A stretch of 64,000 bases of DNA from Candidatus Latescibacterota bacterium (GCA_965217585.1 OZ244561.1:4544001-4608000), one strand, 5' to 3'; positions 2 through 49,700 are shown, counted from the stretch's first letter. Notes: generated by a model not told the origin, from the sequence alone. A program made the numbers and translations.

Positions 2-2332
2 TCCGATGTTGACTTGCTCTTCCTGTTCGCCAAGAGCCAAGACAAGGTTCCCGAAGTGGTCGCCGGCGTATTCAATCCGCTCTGGGACTTGGGGTTTGAG
101 GTGGGGCACAGCAGTCGCACGTTGGACGAGGTGGTCCGGGCGGTGCGCGAAGATTTGGAGTCGCGCACGGCGATGATGGACGGCCGCCTACTGGCTGGCG
201 ACGCCGCGCTTTTCGCCCAGTTCCAAAAGCAGCTCTACAAGCGCGTGCCCAAGCGCACGATCACCGAGCTGAATCGGCTGCGCCAGCAGCGGCTCGAAGC
301 GCGGCAGTCCGTCCAGCTTTTAGAGCCGAATGTCAAGGAGAGTCCCGGGGGCCTGCGCGAGATGCAGATGTTCGAGTGGGCGCTCAAGGCCAAGGCCAAA
401 GCGCCCGAGTGCGGCGATTTGTGCGCGCAGTATCTCGATGGCGGCAGTGAGAGTCTCGCCAAGAGCCGCGCCTTCCTCTGGCGAGTGCGGCACGCGCTCC
501 ACTTTGCCGTGGGCCGCAAGCGCGATGTGCTAGAGCACGATCTCAAGCCGAAGATCGCGGCCGCCTTGGGCTATGAGGACCAAGATCAAGAGTTGGCGGC
601 CGAGTGCTTTATGCGCGATTACTACCTACATGCGCGCACTGTGTACCACCTAGTGGAGCGGGCCTTCCAGCGGTTGACGCGCAAGCCGCGCAACAGCAGC
701 CGCAGCATGTATCTAGAGCGCGGCGTGGCCGCGGTGGAAGGGGAGATCGTCCTCACCGATGACGAGGCGTACTTTGCCGCTGATCCCCTACGCCTGCTGA
801 AGATTTTCTTTACGGCTCAGAGCAAGAGCTTGAAGCTGAGCGATCAGGTGCAGTGTGCGGTGCGCGCCAGTCTGCCGCTGATCGACGACGAATTCAGACG
901 CCTGCCAGCGGCCCGCGACTTGTTCTTCAAGATACTCAAGCGCAAATACCGCACGGCGCGCACCCTCCGGCGCATGCACGACCTAGGAGTCTTGGGCGCG
1001 TACTTGCCCGAGTTTGGGCGGCTGACCTGCTTGGTCCAATACGACATTTACCACATCTACACAGTCGATGAGCACACGCTGGTCGCGCTGGAAAACTTGG
1101 AAGCCCTCGGTCAGAAGGAGGGGAGCATGTCGGCGATCCTCGCCCAATGTACGCGCCGCGACCTGCTGTTCTTCGCCGTGCTCTTGCACGATGTGGGCAA
1201 GTGGAAGCGCAACGACCACATCGCGCGCGGCATTGAGATGACCGAGGAGCTGAGCGAGCGGATGGGGCTGGACCAAGAGGAGCGGTCCATGCTGCGCTTC
1301 CTCGTGAAGCACCACCAAGACATGGTGCTGATCTCTAGGCGGCGCAATCTCGACGACTACGAGATGATCGCCGAGTTCGCCGGTTTGTTCGCCAGCGAGG
1401 AATGGCTGCGCGCTCTCTACTTGGTTTCATACGCCGACCTGTCGGCTGTTGCGCCCGACGCTTGGACCGACTGGCAAGGGGCTTTGCTGTGGGAATTGTA
1501 CCACAAGACGGCCGAGCAATTGCACTCGGACATGCAGGCTCTAGAGGCCAAACAGCGCGCGCGCCAGAAGCTCAACGAGCACCTCGATCACATCGAGGGC
1601 CGCTGGTCGGCCCAGCGGGTCGTCCAGTTCCAAGAGCACATTGAGCAGCTATCCCCCAGCTACTTGGTGGCCTACGACCGCGAGCAAATCAAGGTGCATC
1701 TGGAGATGATCGCCCGCCTGGGCCGCGAGCAGCCTTTTGTCTTGGAATTCATCGAGCACGAGGGGCACACCGAGATCGTCGTCTGCACCCGTGACCAGCG
1801 CCAGATCATGGCCAAGATCTGCGGCGCTTTGGCCGTCAACGACATCAACATCCTCCGCGCGGATGTCAATACCCGCGCTGACGACGTCGTGCTCGACATT
1901 TTCCAGGTGACCGACATCGACGACAGCCCGGTGCTGCCCGACTGGAAGAAGGAGCGCATGCGCGAGCGGGTGGCCGAGGTTATTTCGCTGCGGCTCAAGG
2001 CCCGCGACTTGATAGCGCGCTACAGCAGCAGTTGGGATCGCCGCCGTCGGCAGCGGCAGTACGACCAGCCGCCTCGCATCGCGTTCGACAATCAGATTTC
2101 GGCCCGCTACACAGTTGTCGATATCGAAGCCCAAGACACCGTGGGTCTGCTCTACAGAATCGCGTACCTGCTGGACGAGCTGGATCTCAACATTCACCGC
2201 GCCATTATCAATACGGTGGCGGCGCGGGCGCAAGACGCCTTCTACATCGTCGATGCCGAGGGGCAGAAAATCGCCAGCTACGAAGAACTCGACCGGATAC
2301 AGCAGTACCTGCTCGACGGGCTGGCGTCTTAA
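2..2332 (+). CDS. glnD: [protein-PII] uridylyltransferase GlnD (5' end outside window)
   Basis: Frame is open from the window edge (SDVDLLFL, NTase motif); NVKESPGGLR, HD domain (YHIYTVDEHT, LLHDVGK) and two C-terminal ACT domains. Confidence 0.95.
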   Translation, partial: SDVDLLFLFAKSQDKVPEVVAGVFNPLWDLGFEVGHSSRTLDEVVRAVREDLESRTAMMDGRLLAGDAALFAQFQKQLYKRVPKRTITELNRLRQQRLEARQSVQLLEPNVKESPGGLREMQMFEWALKAKAKAPECGDLCAQYLDGGSESLAKSRAFLWRVRHALHFAVGRKRDVLEHDLKPKIAAALGYEDQDQELAAECFMRDYYLHARTVYHLVERAFQRLTRKPRNSSRSMYLERGVAAVEGEIVLTDDEAYFAADPLRLLKIFFTAQSKSLKLSDQVQCAVRASLPLIDDEFRRLPAARDLFFKILKRKYRTARTLRRMHDLGVLGAYLPEFGRLTCLVQYDIYHIYTVDEHTLVALENLEALGQKEGSMSAILAQCTRRDLLFFAVLLHDVGKWKRNDHIARGIEMTEELSERMGLDQEERSMLRFLVKHHQDMVLISRRRNLDDYEMIAEFAGLFASEEWLRALYLVSYADLSAVAPDAWTDWQGALLWELYHKTAEQLHSDMQALEAKQRARQKLNEHLDHIEGRWSAQRVVQFQEHIEQLSPSYLVAYDREQIKVHLEMIARLGREQPFVLEFIEHEGHTEIVVCTRDQRQIMAKICGALAVNDINILRADVNTRADDVVLDIFQVTDIDDSPVLPDWKKERMRERVAEVISLRLKARDLIARYSSSWDRRRRQRQYDQPPRIAFDNQISARYTVVDIEAQDTVGLLYRIAYLLDELDLNIHRAIINTVAARAQDAFYIVDAEGQKIASYEELDRIQQYLLDGLAS

Positions 2333-2898
2333 TGCTCAAAGAAGGTCAACTCGTCAAAGCCATTCCCCTAGAAGGGGGACAGGTGCTATGCCGCTATCCG
2401 CGCTGGCAGGACATACCCTCGTACGTCGAAATGTGCCAGATTCTGCACCGCGAGCGGGTGCGGGCCTATCACGCTGATACGGATTTCGCCCTGGGCTGCC
2501 AACGCTTGGCCCAGATCATGGTCGAAGTCGAGACAGGTCAGGCCTCCCACCTTTTGCTGGAGGTGGATGGACGCATTATCGGCGAGGGCCGCATGGCCCC
2601 TCACAACCGGGTCATGGGGATTTTAGGAATCAAAATCATCGGCGAGTACCAGGGTCGGCACTTGGGCACGGCGCTGATGGGAGTTTTGGAGGAAGAGGCG
2701 CGCAAAATGGAGCTGCAGCAGATCTACCTGACTGTATTCGCCAATAACACCTCTGCCCGCCGTTTGTACGAAAAGGTCGGTTACCGGCAAGTGGGGCGCA
2801 TTGCCGAATGGTTCAGTGAAGAGGACGAAGACGGTCCTATTGCACTGGTGGACAGAATAGATATGATGAAACGCATAGAGCCGGAGACTCGAGAATGA
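2332..2898 (+). CDS. GNAT family N-acetyltransferase
   Basis: ATG overlaps the glnD stop (TAATG); acetyl-CoA motif YQGRHLGTALM and NTSARRLYEKVGY. Confidence 0.85.
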   Translation: MLKEGQLVKAIPLEGGQVLCRYPRWQDIPSYVEMCQILHRERVRAYHADTDFALGCQRLAQIMVEVETGQASHLLLEVDGRIIGEGRMAPHNRVMGILGIKIIGEYQGRHLGTALMGVLEEEARKMELQQIYLTVFANNTSARRLYEKVGYRQVGRIAEWFSEEDEDGPIALVDRIDMMKRIEPETRE

Positions 2899-2927: not shown

Positions 2928-2940
2928 GGCTGGCGTCTTA
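2928..2940 (+). repeat. 13-bp copy of the glnD 3' end (GGCTGGCGTCTTA, also at 2319-2331)
   Basis: Exact match seen, just downstream of the GNAT gene. Confidence 0.6.
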
Positions 2941-2967: not shown

Positions 2968-3381
2968 ATGTCAGAGCATCTCAAGCCAACCTGCAAAGTG
3001 ATTCGTGGCCGAGAAACCTACGAAGGCAAACAGGCACTCTCCTATATTTCGGGGATCGCAGCCGAGACCACCGGCTCGCAGGGGATTTGCATGCACCTGC
3101 TGAACATGCCTCCTAAAGAACGAGCGAAGGCACACCTGCACGAAAACCACGAGACAGCTATTTATGTCATCAGCGGCCAAGCTGGAATGTGGTATGGCGA
3201 GCGGCTGGAGGAGCATGAATCCATCAACAGCGGCGACTTTGTTTACATCCCCGCCGGCATCCCTCACCTTCCCTACAATCCCAGCGAGACTGAGACCTGC
3301 ACTGCTGTGATCGCCCGGACGGATCCCAACGAACAAGAGAGCGTTAAACTCTTACCCGAACTGGACGGGATACACTGCTAG
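2968..3381 (+). CDS. Cupin domain protein
   Basis: AHLHENHETAIYVISG and GDFVYIPAGIPH cupin motifs; GAGGAG RBS. Confidence 0.9.
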   Translation: MSEHLKPTCKVIRGRETYEGKQALSYISGIAAETTGSQGICMHLLNMPPKERAKAHLHENHETAIYVISGQAGMWYGERLEEHESINSGDFVYIPAGIPHLPYNPSETETCTAVIARTDPNEQESVKLLPELDGIHC

Positions 3382-3407: not shown

Positions 3408-3806
3408 ATGAGCGACGTTAAATGCGCGAGGATGCTGCTGGATGCGGCTGAGCGCAATGTCGCGGCACTTCGCGTCATGTGCCGTTCCGACGAAATCTCC
3501 GACGAGATTTTCGGCTTTCACGTTCAGCAGGCCGCCGAGAAGCTGTCCAAGGCTTGGATCTCACTGCTGGGCGAGGTGTATCCGCTGACCGACAATATCG
3601 AAAGATTGCTCAATCTCCTCGCCGATCAAGGCGTCGCTGTAGAGTCCTTCCGCAAGCTGATCGATTACACTCCATACGCCGTCGAGTTCCGTTATACAGG
3701 TGTCGGCTCAAGTACCGAAGCAATCGATCGCGCTGGTGCGCTCGCGATCGTCGAATCGTTGCTGGAGCAGGTTCGGCGGCGGTTGGCAGAGGTGGAGGGG
3801 GTGTGA
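3408..3806 (+). CDS. HEPN domain protein (orphan, no adjacent nucleotidyltransferase)
   Basis: FHVQQAAEKLSKAW...YAVEFRY HEPN pattern; usual THDL motif reads TDNI. Confidence 0.8.
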   Translation: MSDVKCARMLLDAAERNVAALRVMCRSDEISDEIFGFHVQQAAEKLSKAWISLLGEVYPLTDNIERLLNLLADQGVAVESFRKLIDYTPYAVEFRYTGVGSSTEAIDRAGALAIVESLLEQVRRRLAEVEGV

Positions 3807-4020
3807 TGGAAATGCTGATTTCGTAGTCGATGCGATTCAGCAGAAGATGAACAGTCTTTAGGCATTCAACAGGGTGCTATAAGTCAAAGGTGTCCTGCGA
3901 AAAGAAGTGGAAAAACTCGAAATTTCCCTTCCTTCATTTTTAATCCAACAGAAATTTGCAGACTCGGTTTCTGATATTATGAGATTAGAAGCCGACCGAT
4001 TCGAGGCATACCGCCACTTA

Positions 4021-4890
4021 GAAGCTGTTGAGTTATTCAGATGCATTTAGCGACCGTACTCTTTATCATGGCAATACGAATCATGTTCTCTGCGGATTGG
4101 GTGAGGATTTCGAAGTCTTTCGCCAAGCGTCGAAATCCACCCAACCAAGCCAAGGTTCGTTCGATGATCCAGCGTTTGGGCACCACTTGGAACCCTTGGG
4201 TTGGTTTATCCGCTATATCGAGTCGCAACCCCAACAGGTTTTCAACGAATTCAACGGTGGTACCGCGATAGCCTTGGTCGCCGCAGAAGGCTTCGACCGA
4301 ATCATACTTTTCCGCGACCCGATCACATACGTCCCATCCTTGGCTGGTATCGGCCACATGGGCGGCATGTACTTGGATGGTCAGCATATTACCCAGCGTA
4401 TCGGTGGCGAGGTGGCGTTTACGTCCTTTGATCTTTTTTCCCCCCATCCACGCCTCGATCCTGACTGGCATATTGGGTTTTAACCGATTGCGAATCGATC
4501 AAGGCATAGGTCGGATGTTCGTTTTTGCCCTGCTTGTGACGGGCGCGCTCATTCAGCGCGTCCAAGGCTTGTTCCCACACGCCACGCTGATTCCAGCGTC
4601 GGTAATGGTCATAGACGGTATCCCAAGGGGGAAAATCAAGCGGCAGCATCCGCCACGGAATACCCCCTTTGACGACATATAAAATGGCATTGACCACCTC
4701 GCGTTTGGCATACTTGCCGGGGTTGCCCCGGGGATCAGGACGGTCGAAAAACCCCGCGATCAGGGCCCATTCTGGATCAGTCAAGTCACTTGGATACCCG
4801 CCCATACTAAAAGCCTCCCTGCGCAAAAAAGACAGCAAGCAATACATTATACATACAATACATACAGAGCTTTTTTAACTCAACAGCTTC
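4021..4890 (-). mobile_element. IS5-family insertion sequence (IS1031-like), 870 bp
   Basis: Perfect 15-bp TIRs GAAGCTGTTGAGTTA (4021-4035) / TAACTCAACAGCTTC (4876-4890); TTA target duplication at 4018-4020 and 4891-4893. Confidence 0.95.
4037..4805 (-). CDS. IS5 transposase in two reading frames joined at GGGGGGAAAAAAG
   Basis: ORF A YPSDLTDPEW...WRMLPLDFPPWDTVY...IDSQSVK; ORF B GKKIKGRKRHLATDTLG...KRWIIERTLAWL; a +1 shift is needed at GGKK. Confidence 0.9.
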
Positions 4891-5049
4891 TTAGAGACTC
4901 TATTTCAGGCCAGCCTCCACAGTACTTTCTCCGGTGACCTGACCACCTATTGGCGCGAGGCACATAAGGAGGAACTGCTCCAAGAAAGATAGAGCGGCAG
5001 GCTAAAGAAATCTCTCACGTAGAAACGAAACTGGGGTAATTCCAGTAAT

Positions 5050-8000
5050 ATGTCTTTGAACACAGCAGAGTTGGACAACCAAGAAAAACTCAAGGAAGAG
5101 CTACAAAACGCCCAAGAAGCGTCCAAGCTCGAACGTCTCGCGGCTGCTTTGCTTAGTCGTCTTCTCGACGTGCCGATTGCGGTCGCCAAATCCGGCTTTC
5201 AACATGGCGCGGATGCTGGTCCGGCTGGACAGCAAGGGCGACGGTTTCGGGTGGAATGCAAGAAGTATAGTGATAACAGTAGCTTGAGTGAACGAGAACT
5301 ACTTGGGGAGATTGACCAAGCGCTAGCGCGGGATGAGGCCCTTGAAGCTTGGGTTCTGGTTGTGACCTGTAGCGTTTCAGAACAGATCCGGCAATCGCTT
5401 GATCAGCATGGCGAACAGATGGGTGTCCCCATCGTGATTATCGCTTGGATAGATCAAGATCACGAAGTGGCACCGCTTGCAGCATTGTGTGCATTCGCTC
5501 CTGATTTGGTCGAGAAAGAATTCTCAAAGGAAGCTGGCGCGGCGGCTCGCTCCCTTCAAGCCATATCAGAGGGAGCAATCGAAAGGTTGCGACGCGACTT
5601 GCAGTCTTGGTGTTTGGGGTTTGAAGCAATACGGATGCGCTCTCACGATAAGCTCGATAAGATTTGGAACTCGCCGCAAGAATCAAAGGCTGCAATCGGA
5701 CAAGACGCGGCTGGGGGCGCTCAAAATAAGAAGGTCAAACGTAGCGCAGTACATGAGGCACTGAATGCGTGGTGGCAAGGACCGGCTCGGGATGGTGCCC
5801 CGGCTGCTGTAGTCGGATTGGAAGGGACCGGCAAGACATGGGCGACTTTCCACTGGTTGATCGACAGTAAGGACACGCAACCAATTGTTCTGATAACGCC
5901 ATCCTCTGCGGTAGCCGCCATCGGAAATGTCTCCGAAACCATCGTGAAACAACTCCTAGCGGATAGCCTTCACGAGATGAGCGGGATACGGGATCGGGAA
6001 CACTGGCTCCGCCGGCTCGATTATCTACTTAAACGTCCGATCTGTGAAGGACCAGTCCTGACCATATTCTTCGATGGCCTGAACCAAGAGCCTTCCGTTC
6101 AATGGCTACGACTCTTGCAAGTTTTGCAAGGCGAGACGTTTGGGGAACGCGTAAGGGTAATCGTCAGCACTCGCAATCATCATTTTGAAGAAAAGTTGTC
6201 AGGGCTTCGCGACCTCGTCGTACTAGCCAAGCGGGTTGACGTAAATCTCTATGATACGGCACCCGGGAGCGAACTCGACCAAATGCTTGAGTTCGAGAAT
6301 CTCACGCAGGCCGACTTGCGTCCTGATGTGCTTGAGTTGGCGAGTAACCCCCGTCTTTTCAAGCTCGTAGTACGTTTTCGAGAAAATCTGACTGGGACAG
6401 GTCGAATGACAGGCCACCGCCTGTTGTGGGAGTACGGACGCGACACTTCCGGGATTCTGGCTGGCAGGTCGTTCAGTGAGAGCGAGTGGAGAGAATGGCT
6501 CAAGGAAATTGCTCAGAAACGTCGGAAAGGTATTAAAGAATACTCAGAGAAGTCGCTCGTCGCGACGGTGAACCGTCCAGATCTGAATAAAAACGAAGTG
6601 TATGCACGACTCAGCGACATAATTGACGGTCGGTTCGCCACACGTAGCGCATCGGGCGACCTGCAACTCACTCCTGCGGTCATTTCACATGCCCTCGGCG
6701 TTGCGCTTCTGAACGATCTTGATCAAGTAAACTCGCCAACTTTTGAAACCTTAGATGCCACGTTGGCAGAATGGCTTGATCCCATCGCGGGTCTTGATGA
6801 ACAAGTGGAAATCCTGCGTGCGGCGGTGTCAATTTTGGTAGAGCAGGGACGAGCGTCAGAGGCACCTGTTCCCGGAGTGCTCGTTACGGCATGGCTGCAA
6901 AGCCAGAATACACCCGACGAGCATCGCCAAGAACTTGCCGATCTTGCCCCGCATTTTCCGAATGCTCTACTCGACGCGATCGAATATTCGAATAGTCACG
7001 CTCACAATTCCGCTAGAGTTTGGGCCGTGAACGCGCTGAGTACAATCCCGCGAGACGATAGCGCAGTCCTTGATATGATTGTCAAACGGTCCTGCTGCTG
7101 GCTGGGCGTTGTCGCCTGTGACAGCGATAGGCAGTCGGATAGGCTTAAACGCCTGATCGGTATCGATACCCCGGGTCCGATTACGGTCGTCGACGTCGAT
7201 CTCAAACTGGTCGATCAGTCCTCTAGCTTGATGAAAGCTGTAGTGCCTTTGATCGTCGAAGGCTTTCCGTTGGCTGACGCACTGCCGATTTTCGAGACAG
7301 CAGCCGTTGCGTTAGCGGTCGGAGATCGCAGTAGTTGTTGGGATGGTCTGAAGTGGCTCTGCCTGCTCAACGAAGTTGATTCCAATGAAACGGCGACGGC
7401 TTTACGTGGATTGTCAGAAGAAGTCAGCCGCCGCCAGCCAGAACAGGGCGTACATCCGGATCTTCCGAAGCGCATTGCTGCGCTCCTGCTGTGGCTGACA
7501 GGTCAGGACGAGGACGAGGACGCTGCTGTGTCTATAGATCCCGGCATTGGCCGCCCGCTCACCTATAAGAAAGACTATCTGCCACAGCCCGGTCGAAGCA
7601 TGTTCCCGCTGGAGCGGCGACATGCACACAGCGTCCTCACCGACACAGAACTACCTCTACACTCCCGCGTACAGCGGACCGAAGAGCTATGGCTTGATCC
7701 GAGTTTTGGTCCGCCAGCGAGTTTTGTTGAAGAAGTTTGCGCCGCAGCGACCTGTATTGATGTTGAGAAGTTGAACCGACACGGAGATCTCACTTCTGAG
7801 GATGATGACTTTGAAAGACTGGAACCGGTGCTGGCTCGATGTGCGCCGGATCTGCTCGCGGATCTAATCCGCCGCAAGATGCGGAGTATGGCTACCTGTC
7901 CGCCGGAGTCTAGGCACTGGAGCGCTATCCACGCTACCGAGCACCTAGTGCTGGCGGGCGAGGATGAGGCGGCAGCAGCGAGAGCGTTACGTCTGAATGT

Positions 8001-9465
8001 AGAGGATGAAGATGATGATGCTTCTGACGCCAATAACCTCCTGTTGATAGAGATCCGAAATCTGGATGCACAGGACCAATTCGACGAATTAATTCATGCG
8101 GATTTGAAGTACATCTCGACCAACTTCGCCAAAATCGTGCGTCCTCCGACACCGAATGATGTCGATGGCCTGATCGCTCGCTATGCCGATGGATCACTCA
8201 AACAGCAACGCGACCTGCTCACTCTATTGTCGATCCACCCGGTTGAACTCACGGACACGGCTTGGTCATGGGTTGAAAGATGTGCGAAATGTCAAGACAA
8301 GGATTCTCGCGGATTTGCCTTCCGAATTCTAACCCATGCTGATCCAGTGCGGTCCGGTCAAACGCTTGAGACTGATGGTTGGTCTTGGAGCCGGGACGAG
8401 CATGACTGGGTCAACGATTACGGAACGGACGCCCTTATCAAGGCCACGCTGGATATTCCTTTCGACGACCTAGCACCAAGACTGGCACCTTGGTGGTTGC
8501 TGGAAGCTGTTCGTCAACGTGGAGCTGACCCCACCGAAGTAAGGCTGGCAGCTAAAATCTTCGGTCAATTACTCGATGGGAAGCATCGCGCGGAAGCTAT
8601 CTCCTATTGCGCGGAGGATTTCGTTCCCGTCCTGCAACATGCACCTGATATTGTCGAACAGTGGCTTGAGGGTTGCACTGAGGTCACGACAGATTTTCAG
8701 CACCGTATTTTTTTTGCTGGAAGAGCTTATATTGCGCTCTGCGAGGCCCTCCTTGCACACGCCCCGATGCAGGGCGCGCAGTTGTGTCGTACTCTTTGCA
8801 CTCCCATGATAACACAATATATCGGAGGCGTAGAAAATCTCTTATATATAGTCTTTCGCGTTCCAGACTCACCTACAGTAACGGCGCTCCGAGACGAACT
8901 GGCTGGGTTAGAACATTGCCATACCAATCAGGCACTATTCAATCTGGCAATCGCTGCGTCTTATAACGGTAAGGACGATTGGCTCGCCACTCTCATTGGG
9001 CAAGATAAAGCATCGAAATTCGCTTGGCGACGGGAACGCGCCGCAGTCCTCGCGAGATTCACCGTGAACAATAAGCTACCGGTCGACGACGCTTGGCCTA
9101 ATGGGGAAATCAAAACTGGCTACGCCAATCTTGCTCAGAAAGCAGCACGTTATAGGTGGGCTGAGGCATGTGCCCGCCACTGGTGGCGAGCCTATCTTGC
9201 GTCCTCTGATCCGACTGAGGCTTACGCCGCTTGGGTTTTATTTTTGCGCTCGGCGGATCGTCGTTGTCGGGTCTGGATGAAACAAGATGTTGAAGCTGCA
9301 CAAGAATCGGACGACTTCTTCAAGCTCAAGATGATCCATGCTCGACTTAATCAAGGAAAGCTAGAGAATGCTTTGAAGAAGCGCGAGGACAAGCTCGACA
9401 AGAACTTTTTGGATCGTCGGATTTTTGCGGGTGTAGGCCCTTGGCCAATATACGTGCCGAGTTAG
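5050..9465 (+). CDS. Restriction-endonuclease-like / STAND-NACHT-type ATPase fusion (Avs-like defence candidate), 1471 aa
   Basis: N-terminal PD-(D/E)xK-like QHGADAG...VECKKY; Walker A GLEGTGKT; Walker B IFFDGLNQ; long helical C-terminus; AT-richer than flanks. Confidence 0.75.
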   Translation: MSLNTAELDNQEKLKEELQNAQEASKLERLAAALLSRLLDVPIAVAKSGFQHGADAGPAGQQGRRFRVECKKYSDNSSLSERELLGEIDQALARDEALEAWVLVVTCSVSEQIRQSLDQHGEQMGVPIVIIAWIDQDHEVAPLAALCAFAPDLVEKEFSKEAGAAARSLQAISEGAIERLRRDLQSWCLGFEAIRMRSHDKLDKIWNSPQESKAAIGQDAAGGAQNKKVKRSAVHEALNAWWQGPARDGAPAAVVGLEGTGKTWATFHWLIDSKDTQPIVLITPSSAVAAIGNVSETIVKQLLADSLHEMSGIRDREHWLRRLDYLLKRPICEGPVLTIFFDGLNQEPSVQWLRLLQVLQGETFGERVRVIVSTRNHHFEEKLSGLRDLVVLAKRVDVNLYDTAPGSELDQMLEFENLTQADLRPDVLELASNPRLFKLVVRFRENLTGTGRMTGHRLLWEYGRDTSGILAGRSFSESEWREWLKEIAQKRRKGIKEYSEKSLVATVNRPDLNKNEVYARLSDIIDGRFATRSASGDLQLTPAVISHALGVALLNDLDQVNSPTFETLDATLAEWLDPIAGLDEQVEILRAAVSILVEQGRASEAPVPGVLVTAWLQSQNTPDEHRQELADLAPHFPNALLDAIEYSNSHAHNSARVWAVNALSTIPRDDSAVLDMIVKRSCCWLGVVACDSDRQSDRLKRLIGIDTPGPITVVDVDLKLVDQSSSLMKAVVPLIVEGFPLADALPIFETAAVALAVGDRSSCWDGLKWLCLLNEVDSNETATALRGLSEEVSRRQPEQGVHPDLPKRIAALLLWLTGQDEDEDAAVSIDPGIGRPLTYKKDYLPQPGRSMFPLERRHAHSVLTDTELPLHSRVQRTEELWLDPSFGPPASFVEEVCAAATCIDVEKLNRHGDLTSEDDDFERLEPVLARCAPDLLADLIRRKMRSMATCPPESRHWSAIHATEHLVLAGEDEAAAARALRLNVEDEDDDASDANNLLLIEIRNLDAQDQFDELIHADLKYISTNFAKIVRPPTPNDVDGLIARYADGSLKQQRDLLTLLSIHPVELTDTAWSWVERCAKCQDKDSRGFAFRILTHADPVRSGQTLETDGWSWSRDEHDWVNDYGTDALIKATLDIPFDDLAPRLAPWWLLEAVRQRGADPTEVRLAAKIFGQLLDGKHRAEAISYCAEDFVPVLQHAPDIVEQWLEGCTEVTTDFQHRIFFAGRAYIALCEALLAHAPMQGAQLCRTLCTPMITQYIGGVENLLYIVFRVPDSPTVTALRDELAGLEHCHTNQALFNLAIAASYNGKDDWLATLIGQDKASKFAWRRERAAVLARFTVNNKLPVDDAWPNGEIKTGYANLAQKAARYRWAEACARHWWRAYLASSDPTEAYAAWVLFLRSADRRCRVWMKQDVEAAQESDDFFKLKMIHARLNQGKLENALKKREDKLDKNFLDRRIFAGVGPWPIYVPS

Positions 9466-9529: not shown

Positions 9530-9556
9530 TAGCGCAAAAAGAGCAGTGTGCTCGTC
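9530..9556 (-). repeat. Copy of the 3' end of the DUF2330 gene (TAGCGCAAAAAGAGCA, also 11588-11603)
   Basis: 16-bp exact match, extending to 27 bp with 4 mismatches; reads LLFLR-stop on the minus strand in both places. Confidence 0.75.
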
Positions 9557-9575
9557 CGTACTGTCTATTACCTAA

Positions 9576-10138: not shown

Positions 10139-10816
10139 CTAAAGCTTCAGAAAGTGTTTGGCGGCAGCCATGCTGGGGGCATACTCTAAGTCAAGATCAC
10201 TGAATTCATCCTTAATGTCAGCCCGAATTATTGCCTTATTAGGTTCCGCGTAATCTTTCTTGTTAGAAGATACAAACACTATTGGAGTCGTTATACCGTC
10301 GCTGCGAAGTTGGCGAACGCGTTCGAGATATGTCTCCAAGATTACGCAGTCTTTCATGTTGCCCTTCCCCCTTCGAGCCGGAGCGAGTGCCCTATTGACT
10401 CGATCAAACGCGCGTTCGAGGATTTGCGAGGGTTGAGGCACTGGAGTGCCGGCCTTCAACCAGCGCTCTGCCACCTTACGACATCGATTCTCGTGATTGT
10501 TCAAATGACTTAAATCGACTTCACCCGGCGATTCATACAGCGTAGACAACTCATCAAGCTTGGACACCTGATCTCGAAATTTTGCAAGTGAAGTCTTGGC
10601 TTCCTCATGAACGACATCTACCGTGTCGCAAAACTCCTTACGCACCTGTTCGGCAATAAGGGCTGTAAGCCTTTTACCACTCTCTACCTCGGGCAAGAGC
10701 TCCAAAGATGCGGCCTGATCGAGTACGCGAATATCGTCTCTCGCAGGGTCGCGCATAATGTCCAGAATTACACATGTGTCTAAGCACAAGAATCGCGTGT
10801 CTAACATTGTCGTCAC
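10139..10816 (-). CDS. PIN-like domain protein
   Basis: CLDTCVILD, MKDCVILE and VFVSSNKKDY acidic PIN motifs. Confidence 0.8.
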   Translation of the reverse strand: MTTMLDTRFLCLDTCVILDIMRDPARDDIRVLDQAASLELLPEVESGKRLTALIAEQVRKEFCDTVDVVHEEAKTSLAKFRDQVSKLDELSTLYESPGEVDLSHLNNHENRCRKVAERWLKAGTPVPQPSQILERAFDRVNRALAPARRGKGNMKDCVILETYLERVRQLRSDGITTPIVFVSSNKKDYAEPNKAIIRADIKDEFSDLDLEYAPSMAAAKHFLKL

Positions 10817-11463
10817 GAGAGATCATATGTATTCAACAAACCTATCCCGAATTCATATTGACCAACAAGATCCTCAGCGACATCGGATGGCCATTCTTCT
10901 ACTTCGGTCAACCACGTAAGCAATGACTCAGCATCAAGTTCACCGTTAGCCTTATAGGCAGCAATCAGAAACCTAAACCACTGGTCTTGGTCTGAGGGGT
11001 GGCTAGATCCGGTAGATTTGTTCGCCCCCATAGAGAAGCTGTGGAGAGCAGCGGCGGCTTCTTGGGATATCCAATCCGTAATAGGTCGCTTGCGTTTTGT
11101 AACCTCTACACAAAATTCGGGATCATTCGATACGACGGGCTCTACAATTTGAACCCTAAAGTCGTTTAGCACATCATTGTACTCTGAGGTACTAAGTTGT
11201 ATAGTCGCCAGAGGTAAAATATTTGAAACTTTGTACCCATCTGATTCCGGCCAAAGCGTCAGGATAGAAGCAGCAATACTGCCTCCAGGCATGTGCTCGA
11301 ACGCCATGCAGCCTTCGGGAAGTCTTTCCTCTGTGTCTTCTGCAAGACGCCACGGAGACTTCGCCTGCGCGATAAGAGCTCGGCGAAGTTCATCTCGGCG
11401 TCTATAGGGACATCTTAGAAACAAATCTTGGAAAACCTCAATGGATTCGATTCTCTCTGGCAT
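10813..11463 (-). CDS. Hypothetical protein, translationally coupled to the PIN gene
   Basis: 216-aa ORF, GAGGAG RBS, GTGA overlap with the PIN gene; motif ANKSTGSSHPSDQDQWFRF. Confidence 0.75.
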   Translation of the reverse strand: MPERIESIEVFQDLFLRCPYRRRDELRRALIAQAKSPWRLAEDTEERLPEGCMAFEHMPGGSIAASILTLWPESDGYKVSNILPLATIQLSTSEYNDVLNDFRVQIVEPVVSNDPEFCVEVTKRKRPITDWISQEAAAALHSFSMGANKSTGSSHPSDQDQWFRFLIAAYKANGELDAESLLTWLTEVEEWPSDVAEDLVGQYEFGIGLLNTYDLS

Positions 11464-11586: not shown

Positions 11587-13306
11587 TTAGCGCAAAAAGA
11601 GCAACTTGCGCGTCAATTCTACTCCTTCGGTCTCTAAGCGATAGAGATACACGCCGCTGGCCACGACGTGGCCGCTGTGGTCGCGGCCATCCCAAGCGGC
11701 TTCGCCGTACCCGGCCGCGACTTGGCCGGTGGTGAGGGTGCGCACCTTCTGCCCGTGGAGATTGTAGATGTGTAGGGCGGCGGGCGCGGAGTCGGGCGCG
11801 AGAAAGGGCAAGATCGTGCCCGCATTGAAGGGGTTGGGGTAGTTGGGCAAGAGGGACCAGCTAACCGGGGTCGAGCCAGTGGTCGCTTCTATGGCCGTGG
11901 GGAGGGCGCGGATGACCTGGGGCGGGCCAGAGGTGGTTAGCTGCTCGATGACCGCGGCGGCCGGCTGGCCGACGAGCGGGAGCGGACCAATGCCGCCGGC
12001 AAAGGGGCGGGAGCGGAACTCGCGGCCGTCGGACAGGGTGATAATCAACTCCCATTCCTCCTCGGGCCGAGGGTCCGCCAAGTCGACGGCGCAGTCCATC
12101 CGGATGTCGGCCGAGCGGACATTGCTGACGTCGGGCAGATCGGGATTGTAGGCGAACAGGGGATCGCGGGTCATCTCGTCGGCCGAAAGGGTGGTGTAGA
12201 GCCGAGTGAGATAGGGCTTTTCCTCTACGAGCTGTCGTACGCTTTCCAGCGGCTCGACCACGATGCGCTGTAAGTCAGCGGCAAAGGCGTTGGCGTCAAA
12301 GGCGAAGTCGGCGAGATAGCGGTCATAGGCACGCATGTTGTTGTAGAAGGAGCGTTCGGCGACGTCTTGGAGCCGGCCTTCCTCCCGCGCTTGCTCATAG
12401 GCTTCGCGGTCGCCAGCAAACATCACTTCGAGCACCCCTTCTTCAAGCACGGCTGGTGGCATGGGAATGTGGCGGCGGATCAGGGTCTGCATCTGCGCGT
12501 CGTCGGGGAAACCCTGCACGAAGGCTGCGTTGAGAAAATCGGCAGGGTGATCCTGCTGGCGCAATTGCGCTAGGTCGAAGTCCCACCAGAAAAAGTTGCG
12601 GACGATCTGGCTGGGACCAGCGTAGTCGGTGACAAACGCTTGGCCTCCGGCCTCGTTTGCGGCTTGGGTGACGACCTGTTGATAGTTGAAGCCGCCGTTG
12701 AACCAATCAATGAGGGCTTCGTTGATCTGCACGTGCCGGTAGTTGGTAGGGACGGCGCGGTACTCGCCCAAGATATATGCGAAGATGCCTAGGTCCGGCT
12801 CGGTGGCTACGGCGGTGAGGCGGATGGGGATGCCGGGCGCGTCGGCCGCATAGGTTACGGCGATGGGCTGCAGGTCGCCGACATCGCGGTCTGGCGCGAG
12901 CTTGAGCGCCAAGAAGTAGAAGCCCTCTTCCACGTAGGGCGTCAAAAGCTCAACCCCCAGTTCGCCGAGCTGGTAGCCGTTGTCCACGAGCCAATCGACA
13001 ATGGCTTGGGCGTCGTCCGAGGAAACGACCGCGGTGTCGTAGGGGCCGACCTGTTCTTGGGCGACCACTGCTATGTGACCGTAGCTTTCCGTGGTTTCAG
13101 CGCAGCCTAAGCAGAGCCCTGGGAAAATGACATCAAATAAATCGAAGAAGAGGTAGCAGCTATCCCCAAACTCCTCAAAGTTTATTTCAAAGACGGGCTG
13201 GGTAGCAAATTGTAGCAGGGCGAAAATTTGGTTGTGGCTGACGGCGAGTTCGGGCACCGCCGGCAGGGGTAGTATCCACGCAAAGTCCGCGGCCGCGCCG
13301 CTGTAT
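11587..13306 (-). pseudogene. DUF2330-like protein with C-terminal FlgD-Ig/secretion-type domain, 5'-truncated
   Basis: YSGAAADFAWILPLPAVP, VGPYD, IPIRLTAVA motifs; C-terminal NYPNPFN...WDGRD...SGVYLYRL; homology starts abruptly at the upstream gene's stop with no signal peptide or start. Confidence 0.7.
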
Positions 13307-30780: not shown

Positions 30781-30806
30781 TACCGATTGTTCAAACTGTT
30801 AAAGCT

Positions 30807-31133: not shown

Positions 31134-31464
31134 CGCTATAGCTCCTCAAGTCCTGCCAATATGCTTTGGCGCGTTCAATGTCGCGGCGTTGTGATCGTTT
31201 AGTACCGCCGCAGAGCAAAATTACAATCGTCCTTCCTATTTCTCCATAATACACGCGATACCCCGGACCATAGTGGATTCTCAGTTCAAACACACCTCCA
31301 CCTAGAGATTCGGCATCGCCCATGTTTCCCTGTCGCACACGATTAATTCGGTTGCGGACGATCGCTCGTGCTTTTCTATCTTTGAGAGACTCCAACCAAT
31401 CATCAAAAGGCACGTTTCCTTGTGGGGAAACGTAATTGCGCAACGTCCTAGGAGACATGTTCAT
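31126..31464 (-). CDS. RelE/HigB-family toxin (addiction-module killer)
   Basis: GNMGD...GVFELRIHYGPGYRVYY...LLCGGTKRSQRRDI. Confidence 0.92.
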   Translation of the reverse strand: MNMSPRTLRNYVSPQGNVPFDDWLESLKDRKARAIVRNRINRVRQGNMGDAESLGGGVFELRIHYGPGYRVYYGEIGRTIVILLCGGTKRSQRRDIERAKAYWQDLRSYSDE

Positions 31465-31515: not shown

Positions 31516-31559
31516 TGGCCCGTCAATGGGGCCGCACTACGGACCGGTGGAGTGATCCT
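31516..31559 (+). repeat. AKR 3'-end repeat, copy 3
   Basis: TGGCCCGTCAATGGGGCCGCACTACGGACCGGTGGAGTGATCCT; same G5 to G4 change as copy 2. Confidence 0.92.
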
Positions 31560-33107: not shown

Positions 33108-33177
33108 AAGGCGTTCCAGAAAAATGATTACTAAATGAGAATTATGGTTATTTTTTGGCAAATAGCAAAAAAAACAG

Positions 33178-34068
33178 TTACGTCCTATCCATATCGTTTC
33201 CCCTTTGCTGGTAGAGCAAGCCGGCGACGATGAGCACTAGTCCCGCTAGGGTCGCCCAGCGGATCGCCTCTCCCAGCGCGAAGTGAATCAGCACTAGGGA
33301 GCAGAACGGGGAAATGAAGATTAGGTTGCCGACTCTGGAGGTGTTTTCCGCGTAGCGCAGCGCCCACTGCCAGAGGACATACGCGATCCCCATTTCGAAG
33401 AGGCCGATGTAAGCCGCCCCCAACAAACCCGGCCAAGCAGGTGCCCGCCACTGTCCCATCAGCAGAACGCAGCCGAGCGCCAGCGGCAGCGATAGAGCGA
33501 AATTGAGGAAGAGCCGCACCACGGGATCGCGCTCGTCGCGGGTGTTGTAGATCCAATAGAAGGCCCATACCACTGTGCTGCCCAGCGCCAAGGCCACCCC
33601 GAGCGGATCGGAAAAGCGCAAGGTCCAGATTTCGCCGCGAGTGGAGATGACCAGTACGCCCGCATAACAAATCAAGCCTGCGGCCAGATCGCGTCGGCCG
33701 ATTCGCTGTCCCAAGAGCGGGATCGAGAGCCAAGTCAGGGTGAGCGCCCAAGTATAATTGAGTGCCTGCGCCTCTTGGGCGGGCAGCAACTGGTAGGCTT
33801 TGAAGAGGATCAGATAATAGAGCAGGGGATTTAACGCCCCCAGCGCCAGCGAGCGAGCGTAGTCAGTCGGCCGGCTCTTGAGCACTTGTCCCATCTTCCC
33901 CTGCGCGACGAGTAGCACCCCCAGTACCCCGGTCGAAGCGCAGCTAGCCCAGAATAGCAGCTCGGCGTAGTCCATATAGCGGAGGGTGATCTTGAACGCC
34001 GACGCCACGGTGGACCACAACAACACCGCGGCCAATCCGCAGAGATAAGCCCTTTTTCGATTGTGCAT
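33178..34068 (-). CDS. EamA/DMT family transporter
   Basis: WSTVASAFK, AQEAQALNYTW; multiple TM segments. Confidence 0.9.
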   Translation of the reverse strand: MHNRKRAYLCGLAAVLLWSTVASAFKITLRYMDYAELLFWASCASTGVLGVLLVAQGKMGQVLKSRPTDYARSLALGALNPLLYYLILFKAYQLLPAQEAQALNYTWALTLTWLSIPLLGQRIGRRDLAAGLICYAGVLVISTRGEIWTLRFSDPLGVALALGSTVVWAFYWIYNTRDERDPVVRLFLNFALSLPLALGCVLLMGQWRAPAWPGLLGAAYIGLFEMGIAYVLWQWALRYAENTSRVGNLIFISPFCSLVLIHFALGEAIRWATLAGLVLIVAGLLYQQRGNDMDRT

Positions 34069-45467: not shown

Positions 45468-46322
45468 CTATTCTGCCGTTGATTCATCCGGTTTCGTGGA
45501 CGAATTCTGTTGACCTATTTCGGGGCCAAGCTCCTCCTCTTCCGTTGCCGTCAGCGCACGGATGCGGGCGATGATCGCCTCGACGGTCTCGGTCACCGCC
45601 GCGAGCAACTCAAAGCGGTCGTCCATGACCACCTCCGCGCCGGCATAGCGGTAGCGCACCGCATACTCGGTCAGCCACGCCAGTCGCTCGCCAGCCGAGG
45701 TGTCGCTTTCGGCCGGATGCTGGCGCACAATCGCCATCAAATCCGCCAAGTCGTGGGTGTTGCGATAGTCGGCGTCGAGCGCGGAAATCCAGCCTTTCAG
45801 CGCATTTTCAAGGGCCTGCTGCGCGGTAAACCCAATCAGTTCTTGCGAAGACCGGGGGTTTTCTGTGAGAACTTCCAAATCGTTGAGGTAGCGCTCGGCA
45901 TTGGCAATGCGCTGCCGTATGTCGGGCCAGTTGGTCGGTTCCGGGTTGTCGTAGGTCACTTTGTCTCCATTCGCGTCAAAGCCATCGCGGACGGCTTGGC
46001 CAGCCACGTGGTTGCGCGCCCGACGACCATCGCGGAAGGCCCTTTCGCTCATGCGGACCAAATCGACGCTGATCGAATCGCCGTATAGTTCCTCGACTTT
46101 GCGATGAGCTGCCGCGCTGGTGCGTTGGTACGTCTGCTGGTCCACCGGGCCGGAGCCGGTGATGATGAGCAGGTCAATGTCCGAATCTGGGGTAAAATCG
46201 CCCCGAGCGCGGGAGCCGAACAGGATGACCTTGTCCGGGTGGACTGCCTCGCCAACGGCGCGCGCGACGGCGCAGGCTCTCAGGTCGGGAGGCCGATGAG
46301 TTGAGGGCTTTGGCATGGTCAA
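45468..46322 (-). CDS. Nucleotidyltransferase (MNT)-HEPN fusion protein
   Basis: ILFGSRARGD...SDIDLL, then AQQALENALKG...THDL...YAVRYRY. Confidence 0.88.
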   Translation of the reverse strand: MTMPKPSTHRPPDLRACAVARAVGEAVHPDKVILFGSRARGDFTPDSDIDLLIITGSGPVDQQTYQRTSAAAHRKVEELYGDSISVDLVRMSERAFRDGRRARNHVAGQAVRDGFDANGDKVTYDNPEPTNWPDIRQRIANAERYLNDLEVLTENPRSSQELIGFTAQQALENALKGWISALDADYRNTHDLADLMAIVRQHPAESDTSAGERLAWLTEYAVRYRYAGAEVVMDDRFELLAAVTETVEAIIARIRALTATEEEELGPEIGQQNSSTKPDESTAE

Positions 46323-46331
46323 CTTTTAGTT

Positions 46332-46355
46332 TCACCTGTGCAGGGTGCGGATGAT
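46332..46355 (-). repeat. 24-bp exact copy of the LRR/peptidase gene 3' end (46755-46778)
   Basis: TCACCTGTGCAGGGTGCGGATGAT; reads IIRTLHR-stop on the minus strand. Confidence 0.9.
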
Positions 46356-46692
46356 GTATCTTCGTCCGTATCTTTCCATATCCACAGGGTTATGAACGCC
46401 ACACATGCTAGCGCAATAAGCAGAACAAGCATGTTCTGCTGGGGCGGTCCATGCGAAAATATAGATAAATCCCAGCAGATACCACACTGCATCCATCTCA
46501 ATAATATGCCTGCTTTGCAAATCGGGCGAGGGCTTGTATCTGCCGGTGCGCAAGCGGCTTGGGTTACGTCGGATGCGGAAGATCAGTACACGCACCCAGA
46601 GTAAGACAGTGTCCTGCGTCGGCTTTCGCCCCGAGCTAGAAAAGGCGCTCGGCATCGACTGAACATGTGGCGACTACGTGGCCTCGGTTGCA

Positions 46693-46735
46693 CCCCCCGT
46701 TATGCTGTCCAAGTAGCGGGGGGCTTTTTTATTTT
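46693..46735 (+). terminator. Rho-independent terminator
   Basis: CCCCCCGTTAT...GTAGCGGGGGG stem followed by a T tract. Confidence 0.6.
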
Positions 46736-46754
46736 AACTTCACCGGATTGAGCG

Positions 46755-49700
46755 TCACCTGTGCAGGGTGCGGATGATATTCCCCTGCTCATCCACCACA
46801 TAGATCGGCTCCCGCTGTTCGCCGACGCCGCACGAAAACTCTGGCTGTGCATGAGTAGATGGAGCCGCGATCTTCGCACTGGCCTTTGCGGCGACACTGG
46901 GCAGGGTATATGGGTCGGCCTGTGTGACATCGACACTGTAGCCGAGATCGGCTAGGGCCTGAATCGTGATCGCGCTCAGCGTCCCCCTTCCGCCACTCGG
47001 AGTCATGAGTTCGCCCCCGACCCCGAACACGGAATCCCTCCAGTGCGCCCCATCCATCTTCTGCATCGGTACCTTTTTGCCCGCGTAGTCCCGTCCGCCC
47101 GCGTCGTTAAATGCGGCAATCGCCAGAGGACCGTTGAAGTGCGGGTCGCCATTCGGGTCTTGAAGGAAGCCAAGATCGTAGAATATTGACCCGATCCCCA
47201 GCACGTGTCCTATCTCGTGAAGTCCTGTCCCCACAAAACTATAACTATCAATATGTTTCAAGTTGAACCCCATGCATCCTAAGACGGTCTGCGAGGAAGT
47301 CCTGCGCAACACGCGTGGGCTAGCCCACCCTGCTGCTGTGTCTTCATAGCCGTCGTAGCTGGTTATATAGATCCGTAGGTCGTCTATTCGCTCCCCAGAA
47401 GGGATCGCATACGAATGATCGCCGCACTCCCCCGACCAACCCTGAGTAAATGTATAGTCCGGCAAGTCCTCTCTAATAATCGACATCCAGCGCCGGGCCG
47501 CGTATTGGAGCACCCTCTTCTGACGTTGAGTGAAATCGGCGAGAAAAACCAGTTCGATGTCGAAGTCGCTCTCGCGGAACGAGTCAAAGAATACCGTAAC
47601 CCCGCTCCTTTCAAGGGCAGGAATATGATCGTTGATGGAGGAGGATCTCAGGGGGTTTCCCCTAAGCTCCAGCTCTGTCAGCTTGGTCAAGCCCCGAAGC
47701 GCCGAGATGTCCGTAATGTTGTTAAAATTAAGCTCCAGCCCTGTCAGGTTGGTCAAGCCCGAAAGCGACGATACATCCGTAATGTTGTTAAAATTAAGCT
47801 TCAGCCCTGTCAGGTTGGTCAAGCCCCGAAGCGCCGAGATGTCCGTAATGTTGGTGCTGCTAAGCTCCAGCCCTGTCAGGTTGGTCAAGCCCCGAAGCGC
47901 CGAGATGTCCGTAATGTTGGTGCTGCTAAGCTCCAGCCCTGTCAGGTTGGTCAAGCCCCGAAGCGCCGAGATGTCCGTAATGTTGGTGCCCCCCCCAAGA
48001 TACAGGACTTCCAGGTTGGTCAAGCGTCTCAGTGCCGAAATGCTCTTGATCTGGTTGCCGGAAAGCGTCAGCCATGTCAGGTTGGTCAAATCCGAAAGTG
48101 CCGAAATGCTCTTGATCTGGTTGCGGGAAAGCCCCAGGGATGTCAGGTTGGTCAAATCCGAAAGTGCCGAGACGTCCGTGATCCTGTTGTTATCAAGCCC
48201 CAGCCATGTCAGGTTTATTAAGCCCGAAAGCGCCGATATATTCGTGATGTTGTTAACGCCAAGTTCCAACCGTGTCAGGTTGGTAGCGAACTCCAACCCG
48301 GTCAAATCGCTAATGTCCGCACTCCGCGCGTCCAAGCGGCGCAATCTCGTCATGTCACCCTTGGTAATCGTCGCACCGCTCGCCTTGCTCAGCGCCGCCT
48401 CAATCGCCGCCCGCAGGTTGGCGTCGGGAATGGTCGCGGGACTCGATTCAGACCAGACCCTCACGGCCCTTGAACTGGAGCAGTTGTTATCGGTATTGGA
48501 TTCCCCGGCTACCGATGTCACACAGGCCCCATATAATAGATGCCCTCACTCAACGGGGTGGTCAGGCGGATAACTTTGTCACTGGTGCCGGCCGCCGCCA
48601 GAGCGTCCACCGCGTCCGTGTCCACTTCCGTATCCCGGGTAGAAATCGTCTCGTCGGTCGAGCGGTAGTAACGCAGCGTCGTTGCAGCGGCTTGACTGTC
48701 CCCTTGGTTGCGGACGGTCACCAGCAGAGTGAAGTGCTCCCCCGGAGACACGAAAGTCGACCCTATCTTCAAAGGCGGCTCGACCACCAAGTCCGGCCCC
48801 CCTTGGCTGGACGTACTATCCGTTTCCGCTTGTTGTCCATCTTGATGGTCTGGCAACGTCGTAAAATTCGGCCCGAAGACCCATTCAGAGGGGCCATCGC
48901 TATTCTCGGCTCTGGCGGCCCAGCGATACTCTGTATTCGGCTCAAGATCGTAGATCGTGTTGTATAGCCTCACGCCTTTATGCGGTTCGTTGGTCCACCT
49001 ACCACCGACGGCCCGCTTGTAGTTGACATCATAGTCGGTGGCCCCCTCAGCCGCATCCCAGCGCACCCGGCAGGACGAATCGGTCACCGCCTCAAAGCGC
49101 AGATTGGTCGGCGCAGGCGGCGCTTCGAGGGCCGCCTGTGCCTTCCCGCTGGGACCGGGGCCCTCTTCTTCGTCGTTGAGCGAGTCGAACAGATCGCAAA
49201 AGGCACAGTCGTCGTCCGTAGCCTTGCCCGCCGAATGCGGTCCCACCGACACCACCAACTCCACCGGAGCCATGCCCGCCTCGACCCGAAAGGCCGAATC
49301 CACATAGGGAACCAACCCGCTGCCCGAAACGATCAACCCATATACCTGGGATTCCGCTCTATCAGACCCGCCACCAGACACACCCGACAAAACAGAAGCA
49401 GCCCCCGCCGCCGAGACACCCGCTTGCCCATCAACCAGCACCATCCGTCCCGTCTGGCTCTCCACCCCCACCGTCATCCGGTAGATATACACCCCCGCCC
49501 CTACCGCCCGACCAGACGCATCCGTAGCGTGCCAAGTCGCGGTATGAAAACCGGCCGGACGCTCCCCATCCACCAACGTCGCAATGCGCTGCCCCAACAG
49601 GTTAAACACCTCTAGGCGCACCTCGGACAAAGCCGCCAGTTGATAGGGAATGATCGTCGAGGGATTGAATGGATTGGGGTAATTCTGACCCAACGCGAAC

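Follow-up and report, generated by a model that had tools for sequence, protein, structure and literature searches.

Copies of gene 3' ends, left behind downstream of accessory DNA, recur in the genome of a Candidatus Latescibacterota bacterium (G000, a single contig of 7.32 Mb with 59.5% GC), and a 64,000-nt stretch of it, G000:C1:4544001-4608000 (hereafter the window), holds four loci of this kind. Their anchors are glnD, a DUF2330 gene, an aldo/keto reductase (AKR) gene and a leucine-rich repeat (LRR) / leishmanolysin-like gene. With a probability of roughly 0.55, the repeats would be scars left where DNA was displaced and rearranged at tight gene junctions without a recombinase; on this reading they would be neither attachment (att) sites nor target duplications of a dedicated enzyme's making. 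The pattern is genuine and extends far beyond the four loci. An earlier reading of the window (the original prediction) had proposed a distinct, undescribed integron-like system; its gene names at the four loci are upheld by Pfam, which was used here to identify anchors and cargo, while PADLOC was used for candidate defense matches. Comparisons were made with 19 other genomes (16 closer and 3 outlying relatives), giving 20 genus genomes with G000.

At the AKR locus, third of the four, the anchor (27590..28483, plus strand; Pfam) ends in about 43 nt, comprising the functional gene end and 5 nt beyond it (copy 1, 28446..28488, plus strand), that are found again at 30739-30781 and 31518-31560. 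In BLAST, the second copy spans 30717..30781 (plus strand; 66 nt, 89%) and the third 31516..31560 (plus strand; 45 nt, 91%). A 15-mer from this gene end, GGGGCCGCACTACGG, occurs three times in the 7.3-Mb genome, always within the AKR locus. Between copies 1 and 2 lie an enolase-superfamily gene (28517..29650, plus strand; Pfam) and an EcsC-like membrane protein gene (30045..30722, plus strand), the latter being strain-specific cargo with a weak PADLOC PDC-S29 match. Copies 2 and 3 enclose a pair at 30807..31464 on the minus strand, made up of a HigA-like antitoxin (30807..31133) and a Gp49/HigB-like toxin (31126..31464). Beyond copy 3 come a Fic-domain protein gene (31560..33161, minus strand; PADLOC PDC-S24, E 2.4e-184) and the conserved convergent flank, an EamA transporter gene (33178..34068, minus strand).

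This flank abuts AKR directly in G016 and G017, the two genomes with an empty AKR site. The enolase-superfamily gene is absent in both, and in G001, G002, G003, G008 and G009 it is bracketed by AKR-end copies; in G009 it is, with one degenerate copy, all that lies between AKR and EamA. The order in G001 is AKR, enolase, remnant, nucleotidyltransferase-HEPN (MNT-HEPN) with the HEPN part cut short, another remnant, PIN-DUF433 and EamA, and the loci of G002, G003, G011 and G012 carry other cargo (a second enolase-type gene, small toxin-antitoxin pairs, a 386-aa protein, an insertion sequence). No integrase-like open reading frame (ORF) was seen in the variable parts of the locus in seven relatives, as judged by eye from N-terminal sequence and not by Pfam. 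Around the HigBA cassette of other families (G028, G029, G030), flanking gene-end repeats were looked for and only chance 11-14-mers were met. As a separate observation, the Fic/PDC-S24 gene, which occupies the AKR locus in G000 and G005 only, shares 86-89% DNA identity with another family of the same class (G029, G021, G030), and this similarity suggests a recent cross-family transfer.

The AKR stretch is also present in public runs labeled as sponge metagenomes in their records; all of these are contigs, and hence no frequencies can be given. Independent short-read contigs run across the junctions of all three copies and show no difference there. Because contigs cross the copy junctions, the repeats are not assembly artefacts, and the same structures recur in independently assembled relatives. 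In one run, a contig joins 30780 to 31559, so that the HigBA unit between copies 2 and 3 is lost (shorter side 23 nt), and in three runs from two studies position 31532 is joined back to 30754 with one extra G. The latter form is a tandem duplication or a circle, which contigs cannot distinguish. With loss and back-join forms in natural populations, the AKR-end repeats are active.

At the fourth locus, the LRR / leishmanolysin-like gene (46755..48521, minus strand; Pfam) is followed by a 399-nt insert that holds a terminator hairpin but no convincing gene (46356..46754, minus strand), a copy of the gene end (46325..46355, minus strand; last 24 nt exact, 423 nt downstream) and a fused MNT-HEPN gene (45468..46322, minus strand). 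Just two copies of this gene end exist in the whole genome. The insert is absent in G002, where the MNT-HEPN gene stands directly after the LRR end, an empty site for the 399-nt insert. In G031, two MNT-HEPN units lie in tandem, each behind an LRR-end remnant (48 and 71 nt), and in G007 the order is LRR, MNT-HEPN, 34-nt remnant and second MNT-HEPN; the genes stacked in these two genomes are diverged from one another, each behind its own gene-end copy. G013 retains nothing of the LRR gene but a 40-nt remnant. Remnant length differs among events at this one gene, from 24-31 nt in G000 through 34 nt in G007 and 40 nt in G013 to 48 and 71 nt in G031, and likewise at AKR (66 and 45 nt in G000, about 30 nt in G001). 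Such stacked units, together with the variable cargo of relatives, bear out the idea that one site can be used repeatedly. Within the LRR gene itself, 47593-48350 consists of long in-frame tandem repeats with a 66-nt period (LRR units).

The glnD locus, first of the four, has a different history. The intact anchor, glnD (PII uridylyltransferase; 14..2332, plus strand; Pfam GlnD_UR_UTase, HD and ACT), carries the 13-mer GGCTGGCGTCTTA at its end (2319..2331, plus strand) and is overlapped at its stop (TAATG) by the start of a GNAT acetyltransferase gene (2332..2898, plus strand), which lies behind the cupin gene in most relatives. The distal copy of the 13-mer (2928..2940, plus strand), in which the 7-nt microhomology GGCTGGC is followed by GTCTTA, begins the ancestral glnD-cupin junction, and the cupin gene comes next (2968..3381, plus strand). 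In G010, G013 and G004 the cupin gene directly follows glnD, with GNAT behind it, whereas G000 and G001 have the order GNAT, 13-mer, cupin. The GNAT gene and its flank run in G011 to a 32-nt HEPN gene-end remnant whose first bases are GGCTGGC; the corresponding flank of G000 leads into GGCTGGC and GTCTTA, the glnD end, and then into the ancestral glnD-cupin spacer. The 13-mer is therefore a join at the 7-nt microhomology GGCTGGC between the GNAT flank and the glnD end, and the locus represents rearrangement within the island and not capture of foreign DNA. This is the one junction resolved to microhomology level. In the glnD island of G001, there are two 3' fragments of the cupin gene. A further candidate copy of the glnD end (3358-3374, 15/17) was rejected, as it reaches only a background-level score in the same scan and corresponds to the conserved cupin C-terminus in relatives.

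Downstream of the cupin gene, the island contains a HEPN-domain gene (3408..3806, plus strand; Pfam), an IS5-type insertion sequence (4008..4903, minus strand) whose inverted repeats are 28 nt long, whose DDE transposase is frameshifted and of which 100% identical copies exist elsewhere in G000, and a 1471-aa cargo ORF (5050..9465, plus strand) without Pfam or PADLOC match, present only in G001 among the 19 relatives (86-88% DNA identity). The anchor of the second locus, a DUF2330 + FlgD_ig gene (11587..13368, minus strand; Pfam), is followed on its strand by a cargo pair (10139..11463, minus strand), namely a PIN_12 gene (10139..10816) and its upstream partner (10813..11463), and then by a remnant of its own 3' end (9530..9556, minus strand; 16 nt exact, 23/27 overall). 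The DUF2330 gene is itself variable; G009 and G006 are without it and keep 3' remnants of 59 nt and about 190 nt, respectively. Adjoining the remnant in G000 is a MITE-like element of 108 nt with 20-nt inverted ends (9572-9679), which has at least four more copies in G000 at 95-98% and copies in several relatives. Next to the DUF2330 gene, a PcfJ-like domain is encoded in an ORF of 581 aa (13307-15052); annotation at 13.4-15.0 kb is uncertain, the crude gene caller having favored other frames over this ORF. A PADLOC search with the PIN_12 pair and the PcfJ-like ORF gave no match.

Cargo between copies in the window includes GNAT, cupin, HEPN, PIN_12 with its upstream partner, the enolase-superfamily enzyme, the EcsC-like membrane protein, the HigB/HigA-like pair, the Fic protein and the fused nucleotidyltransferase-HEPN. 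The two large cargo stretches have a GC of 0.47-0.57 against 0.60-0.66 in their surroundings, in agreement with the expectation that cargo is AT-richer. The original prediction had counted six extra gene-end copies, always direct and downstream of the intact 3' end, at four loci of capture. Five of the six are retained (two at AKR and one each at LRR, DUF2330 and glnD) and all five have this orientation and position, the sixth at 3358-3374 being noise; one of the four loci, glnD, is a rearrangement within its island.

Genome-wide, a direct repeat of the last 60 nt within 10 kb downstream is found for 139 of 5,096 genes. The control counts are 69 for mid-gene windows, 71 when the partner lies upstream, 94 and 71 when the first 60 nt are used and 22 when the repeat is inverted; an enrichment of 3'-end duplications over controls, which had been predicted, is thus observed. 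The gene calls behind these statistics are crude (codon log-odds score and greedy selection). It is tandem paralog arrays, numerous in this genome, that make the control counts high. Arrays of 2.1-2.4-kb paralogs occur for example at 2.85-2.90, 3.64-3.66 and 6.79-6.85 Mb and inflate every repeat-based control. A second contrast comes from a catalogue of direct and inverted repeat pairs (12-nt seeds, spacing 30-12,000 nt). Among 506 isolated direct pairs with a score of at least 16, 28 have an edge 0-6 nt past the stop of a gene of at least 100 codons and the partner downstream, against 5 with the partner upstream and 6 and 2 at 5' ends in the mirror geometries, and 13 and 3 in neighboring bins.

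By BLAST, 3' fragments downstream of an intact gene range from 16 to 377 nt with continuous lengths, and about 79 remnants are left once long-ORF ends and copies less than 200 nt away have been removed. Cargo can be cut at the junction, as shown by HEPN genes truncated beside a remnant at 320.5 kb of G000 and in G001. The former site has a 41-nt identical block within a longer diverged gene-end copy, then MNT, the shortened HEPN gene and a further, older copy (105 nt, 79%). Ordinary mobile elements contribute to some loci: cargo at 3.378 Mb is partly a multicopy insertion sequence, and an event at 5.471 Mb was rejected, its 37-nt repeat being the end of two tandem ISAs1-type copies. Apart from insertion sequences and one 915-nt segment, nothing clear was found as cargo shared by two G000 loci; this segment occurs at 1.737 Mb and 1.227 Mb (93%), the second site being without an obvious gene-end repeat.

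Outside the window, a DAO-type FAD oxidoreductase gene (G000:C1:161091-162212) stands behind a gene termed X here (159723..161066) in G000, G001 and G005. In G000 and G001 it is flanked by 46-nt copies of the X end, while in G005 the distal one has an internal deletion and reaches further left. The gene X site at 161 kb is clean and empty in G031, G012, G006 and G003. Empty sites are thus found among relatives at AKR (G016, G017), LRR (G002) and gene X (four genomes); empty-site alleles and alternative cargo were both expected under the original prediction, and both exist in relatives. Eight relatives have the DAO gene (89% identical) between two other convergent genes, at a site that is empty in G000 (2340172), and beyond this second DAO site lies a weak copy, about 25 nt long, of the neighbor gene's end. 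The two DAO sites, each between convergent genes and in different clades, share just the ribosome-binding site (RBS), ORF and stop.

The divergence between copies is informative about their source. When 52 remnants were aligned without gaps to the intact ends, mismatches numbered 94, 67 and 221 at codon positions 1, 2 and 3 (chi-square p 8.6e-24), and the differing codons comprised 190 synonymous and 140 non-synonymous changes. An ortholog comparison of four genes gives 523, 227 and 1701 at the same positions. Duplication in place followed by neutral decay predicts about 113-117, 98-107 and 158-172, and is rejected (p at most 1.8e-6). About two thirds of the differences look, from these proportions, as if they had arisen while both copies were coding. 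Such coding-like divergence fits a gene end that arrived with the cargo from another lineage, and not a target duplication. The 320.5-kb site, with its identical block inside a longer diverged copy, illustrates this in detail.

Searches for an enzyme or a cis-acting site were negative. G000 has five PF00589 (tyrosine recombinase) matches and none to PF00239 (serine recombinase), and none lies in the window or in any cargo. Among closer relatives, 15 of 16 have 3-5 PF00589 matches each and G003 has 8, while the three outlying genomes have 12-13; PF00239 is matched in one of the 20 genus genomes, and in all 20 the matches to both families lie well away from the loci examined. Where cargo includes transposases, these belong to ordinary insertion sequence copies. 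Ku was not found, and the sole genome match to RVT_1 (G000:C1:4944356-4945009, in a 636-aa open frame) is outside the window and the listed loci. As to DNA uptake by natural transformation, homologs of ComEC and DprA are present but also matched in 10-11 of 14 control genomes, and are therefore little informative. No 6-mer is enriched at the 79 cassette borders beyond paralog repeats, and there is no attC-like shared site, the repeat sequence differing at every locus. Altogether, border 6-mers, PF00589, PF00239, Ku and reverse transcriptase (RT) yielded no cis motif and no trans-acting gene behind the pattern.

These results bear unevenly on the original prediction. Its statement that the copies have no motif in common agrees with the 79 borders. 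The absence of an integrase from the window holds for PF00589 and PF00239, whereas the absence of any recombinase does not, given the IS5-type DDE element at 4008-4903. For a trans-acting recombinase or RT that would track the pattern there is no candidate, the lone RVT_1 match being far off. A distinct integron-like system is not borne out, as remnant lengths are continuous, cargo is cut, the glnD locus is rearranged and neither cis motif nor trans gene was found. Of the routes named in the same prediction, Campbell-type insertion of DNA with a homologous end or homology-assisted uptake is favored by the codon-position bias, the stacked units and the loss and back-join forms.

The process favored here would begin with accessory DNA entering tight spots just past stop codons, often between convergent genes a few bases apart. 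The incoming DNA would mostly bring its own 3' end of the anchor gene, its source being the same locus of a related strain. One side would recombine with the resident gene, and the other would be joined illegitimately or inside an older remnant. The gene would thereby be kept intact and its resident end pushed downstream as a silent remnant; repeated, this step would build arrays of gene-end remnant plus cargo units, the oldest farthest away. Thereafter, units would be reshuffled, duplicated or removed through joining at microhomologies, deletions that cut into cargo, gene conversion, and excision or unequal exchange between the copies. We infer the order of these events, the route of DNA entry and a dependence on RecA from the patterns in the sequences. 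Homology-borne displacement is favored because of the third-position bias, the stacked diverged units and the loss and back-join forms. A dedicated integron-like machine is not the reading to be preferred, and displacement comes close to the candidate mechanisms named in the original prediction.

Several points weigh against this account. The DAO gene, found at two loci with a copy of the local gene end at each, suggests that some duplications are made at insertion. The two 46-nt X-end copies of G000 show no differences, even though the insertion is older than the separation of G000 from G001 and G005, and gene conversion must be assumed to explain identical copies of an old event. The enolase and GNAT inserts are also trimmed nearly to the ORF. 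Among the relatives searched, there is no donor with the anchor gene directly before the HigBA or DAO unit. The strong 3'-over-5' asymmetry would have to be accounted for solely by selection, and the statistics rest on crude gene calls, with at least one listed event having been a tandem insertion sequence. The codon bias and the rejection of in-situ decay speak for incoming DNA that would carry its own anchor allele; the DAO case speaks against it, and no donor genome was identified.

Among the alternatives, purely internal rearrangement, in which tandem duplication between microhomologies and differential deletion would act with no incoming DNA, is doubtful as a general explanation. It fits the glnD locus, where cupin and GNAT are reordered around a 7-nt microhomology join, as well as the two G031 remnants that are identical over 48 nt and a genome rich in tandem paralog arrays. 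However, cargo is usually unrelated to the sequence past the distal copy, has a lower GC and is absent in relatives, the divergence is allele-like, and relatives have clean empty sites at AKR, LRR and gene X. Moreover, decay of paralogs predicts equal numbers of upstream and downstream remnants, whereas 28 downstream and 5 upstream are seen. Chance matches or assembly artefacts are scarcely credible: were any gene admissible, a match like the glnD 13-mer should by itself turn up a few times in the genome, and the 15/17 match is at noise level, but the excess over four mirror controls, the recurrence of the same structures in independent assemblies and the contigs that span junctions oppose this explanation, and refute it for the AKR, LRR and DUF2330 copies. 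Decayed or satellite integrative elements, whose repeats would be attL and attR with the integrase lost or acting in trans as for cis-mobilizable elements (CIMEs), would account for the classical geometry of intact end, cargo and displaced end stopping at the gene's end, for tandem arrays that resemble accretion and, through an element-borne gene end, for the third-position bias. This reading is nevertheless very improbable, since G000 has five tyrosine recombinase matches and no serine one for some 79 remnants of many unrelated sequences, the genus is equally recombinase-poor with none in cargo, boundaries vary among events at one gene, cargo is cut at junctions and the borders have no motif.

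A dedicated capture activity, the attC-less integron of the original prediction, has also to be weighed. It would place ORF-sized cassettes just behind stop codons and, in doing so, copy the local gene end into a long target duplication of variable length. It is suggested by the DAO gene at two loci, with the local gene end copied each time and only RBS, ORF and stop in common, by the ORF-tight edges of the enolase and GNAT cassettes, by a repeat edge placed sharply 0-6 nt past the stop and by the back-join, which is compatible with circles. This activity is judged improbable: the distribution of mismatches over codon positions rejects the view that the copies stem mainly from in-situ duplication, neither a motif nor a candidate enzyme was found (one distant RT, no Ku), lengths of 16-377 nt and truncated cargo are unlike the footprint of one enzyme, and tight convergent gene pairs account for the position of the edge without any mechanism. 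Improbable to the same degree is a recombinase-independent cassette system of this genus, in which ORF-sized DNA would be inserted behind stop codons with duplication of the local gene end and the repeats would serve as handles for excision of circles, re-insertion, duplication and loss, any gene end being usable. Should such a system exist, it would amount to a novel mode of gene capture and an integron analogue without IntI and attC.

Two further features of the window stand apart from these loci. The intergenic motif CGCAGATGAACGCAGATGAACGCAGA has six exact copies genome-wide, on both strands, of which those at 21703-21741, 24571-24609 and 34075-34113 lie within 13 kb, each near a gene boundary; a degenerate copy is found at 20076-20114. 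The motif may serve as a binding site for a regulator, or it may be a small repeat element. Long in-frame tandem repeats with a 132-nt period occupy 61622-62895 (ORFs 61701..62333 and 62306..62890).

Many chromosomal hotspots of gene gain lack integrases and transposases, and the route of DNA entry there is largely inferred; integrase-free hotspots of horizontal gene transfer are reportedly the subject of work by Oliveira in 2017. G000, and by sampling its genus, keeps footprints of the process in the form of dozens of displaced ends that can be read by length, position and divergence. The mechanism is thereby testable, as donor-supplied and locally made duplications, or RecA-type and microhomology joins, can be distinguished. 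With cargo consisting largely of toxin-antitoxin and candidate defense genes, the loci are relevant to the assembly of defense islets in an integrase-poor uncultured lineage. In the open-access literature searched, including the accessible text of a paper on toxin-antitoxin erosion (PMC13617665), no description of a genome-wide gene-3'-end remnant signature was met.

Compared with known systems, the loci share parts of several. CIMEs and genomic islands are flanked by a duplicated gene or tRNA 3' end, and they have in common with the loci studied here an intact end, cargo and a displaced end in direct orientation, as well as tandem accretion. Here, in contrast, there is no cis integrase, the genus is nearly without spare recombinases, boundaries vary, and cargo is 0.3-10 kb and often one gene; of the features of att-flanked elements, the 3'-end direct repeat is present, and the fixed att core and cognate integrase are not. 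Integrons likewise consist of stacks of small, often promoterless single-gene or toxin-antitoxin cassettes with turnover from strain to strain, but here there is neither IntI nor an apparent attC-like conserved or structured element, and the repeat is the local gene end, different at each locus. Transposons make duplications of fixed length, unlike the 13-377 nt without border motif seen here, and a diversity-generating retroelement has its RT beside the template repeat, whereas the RVT_1 match is far away. For small variable segments without integrase, a model of one-sided homologous recombination and an illegitimate join has been put forward (Touzain 2010, PMC2884548), and the displacement favored here also fits that model. 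In the accessible text of that study, these are variable segments between conserved genes without mobile-element genes, as here, and, unlike here, no systematic gene-3'-end remnant signature is described (PMC2884548).

The closest described process is the sequential displacement proposed for type VI secretion system (T6SS) and Rhs loci. Rhs 'C-terminal displacement' is said to go back to work by Jackson in 2009. For the T6SS effector-immunity arrays of V. cholerae, sequential displacement via homology-facilitated illegitimate recombination has been proposed (PMC5361080). As far as the accessible text goes, such arrays resemble the present loci: they lack an integrase, new DNA gets in through homology to a conserved gene upstream, older material, including a gene 3' end, is shifted downstream, and the oldest unit comes to lie farthest away. 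They differ in being confined to one specialized toxin locus, where a variable toxin tip or an immunity gene is what becomes displaced, whereas here the anchors are dozens of ordinary genes (glnD, reductases, membrane proteins) and the part displaced is the conserved 3' extremity of the gene, stop codon included. What is new here is the scale and the ordinariness of the anchor genes.

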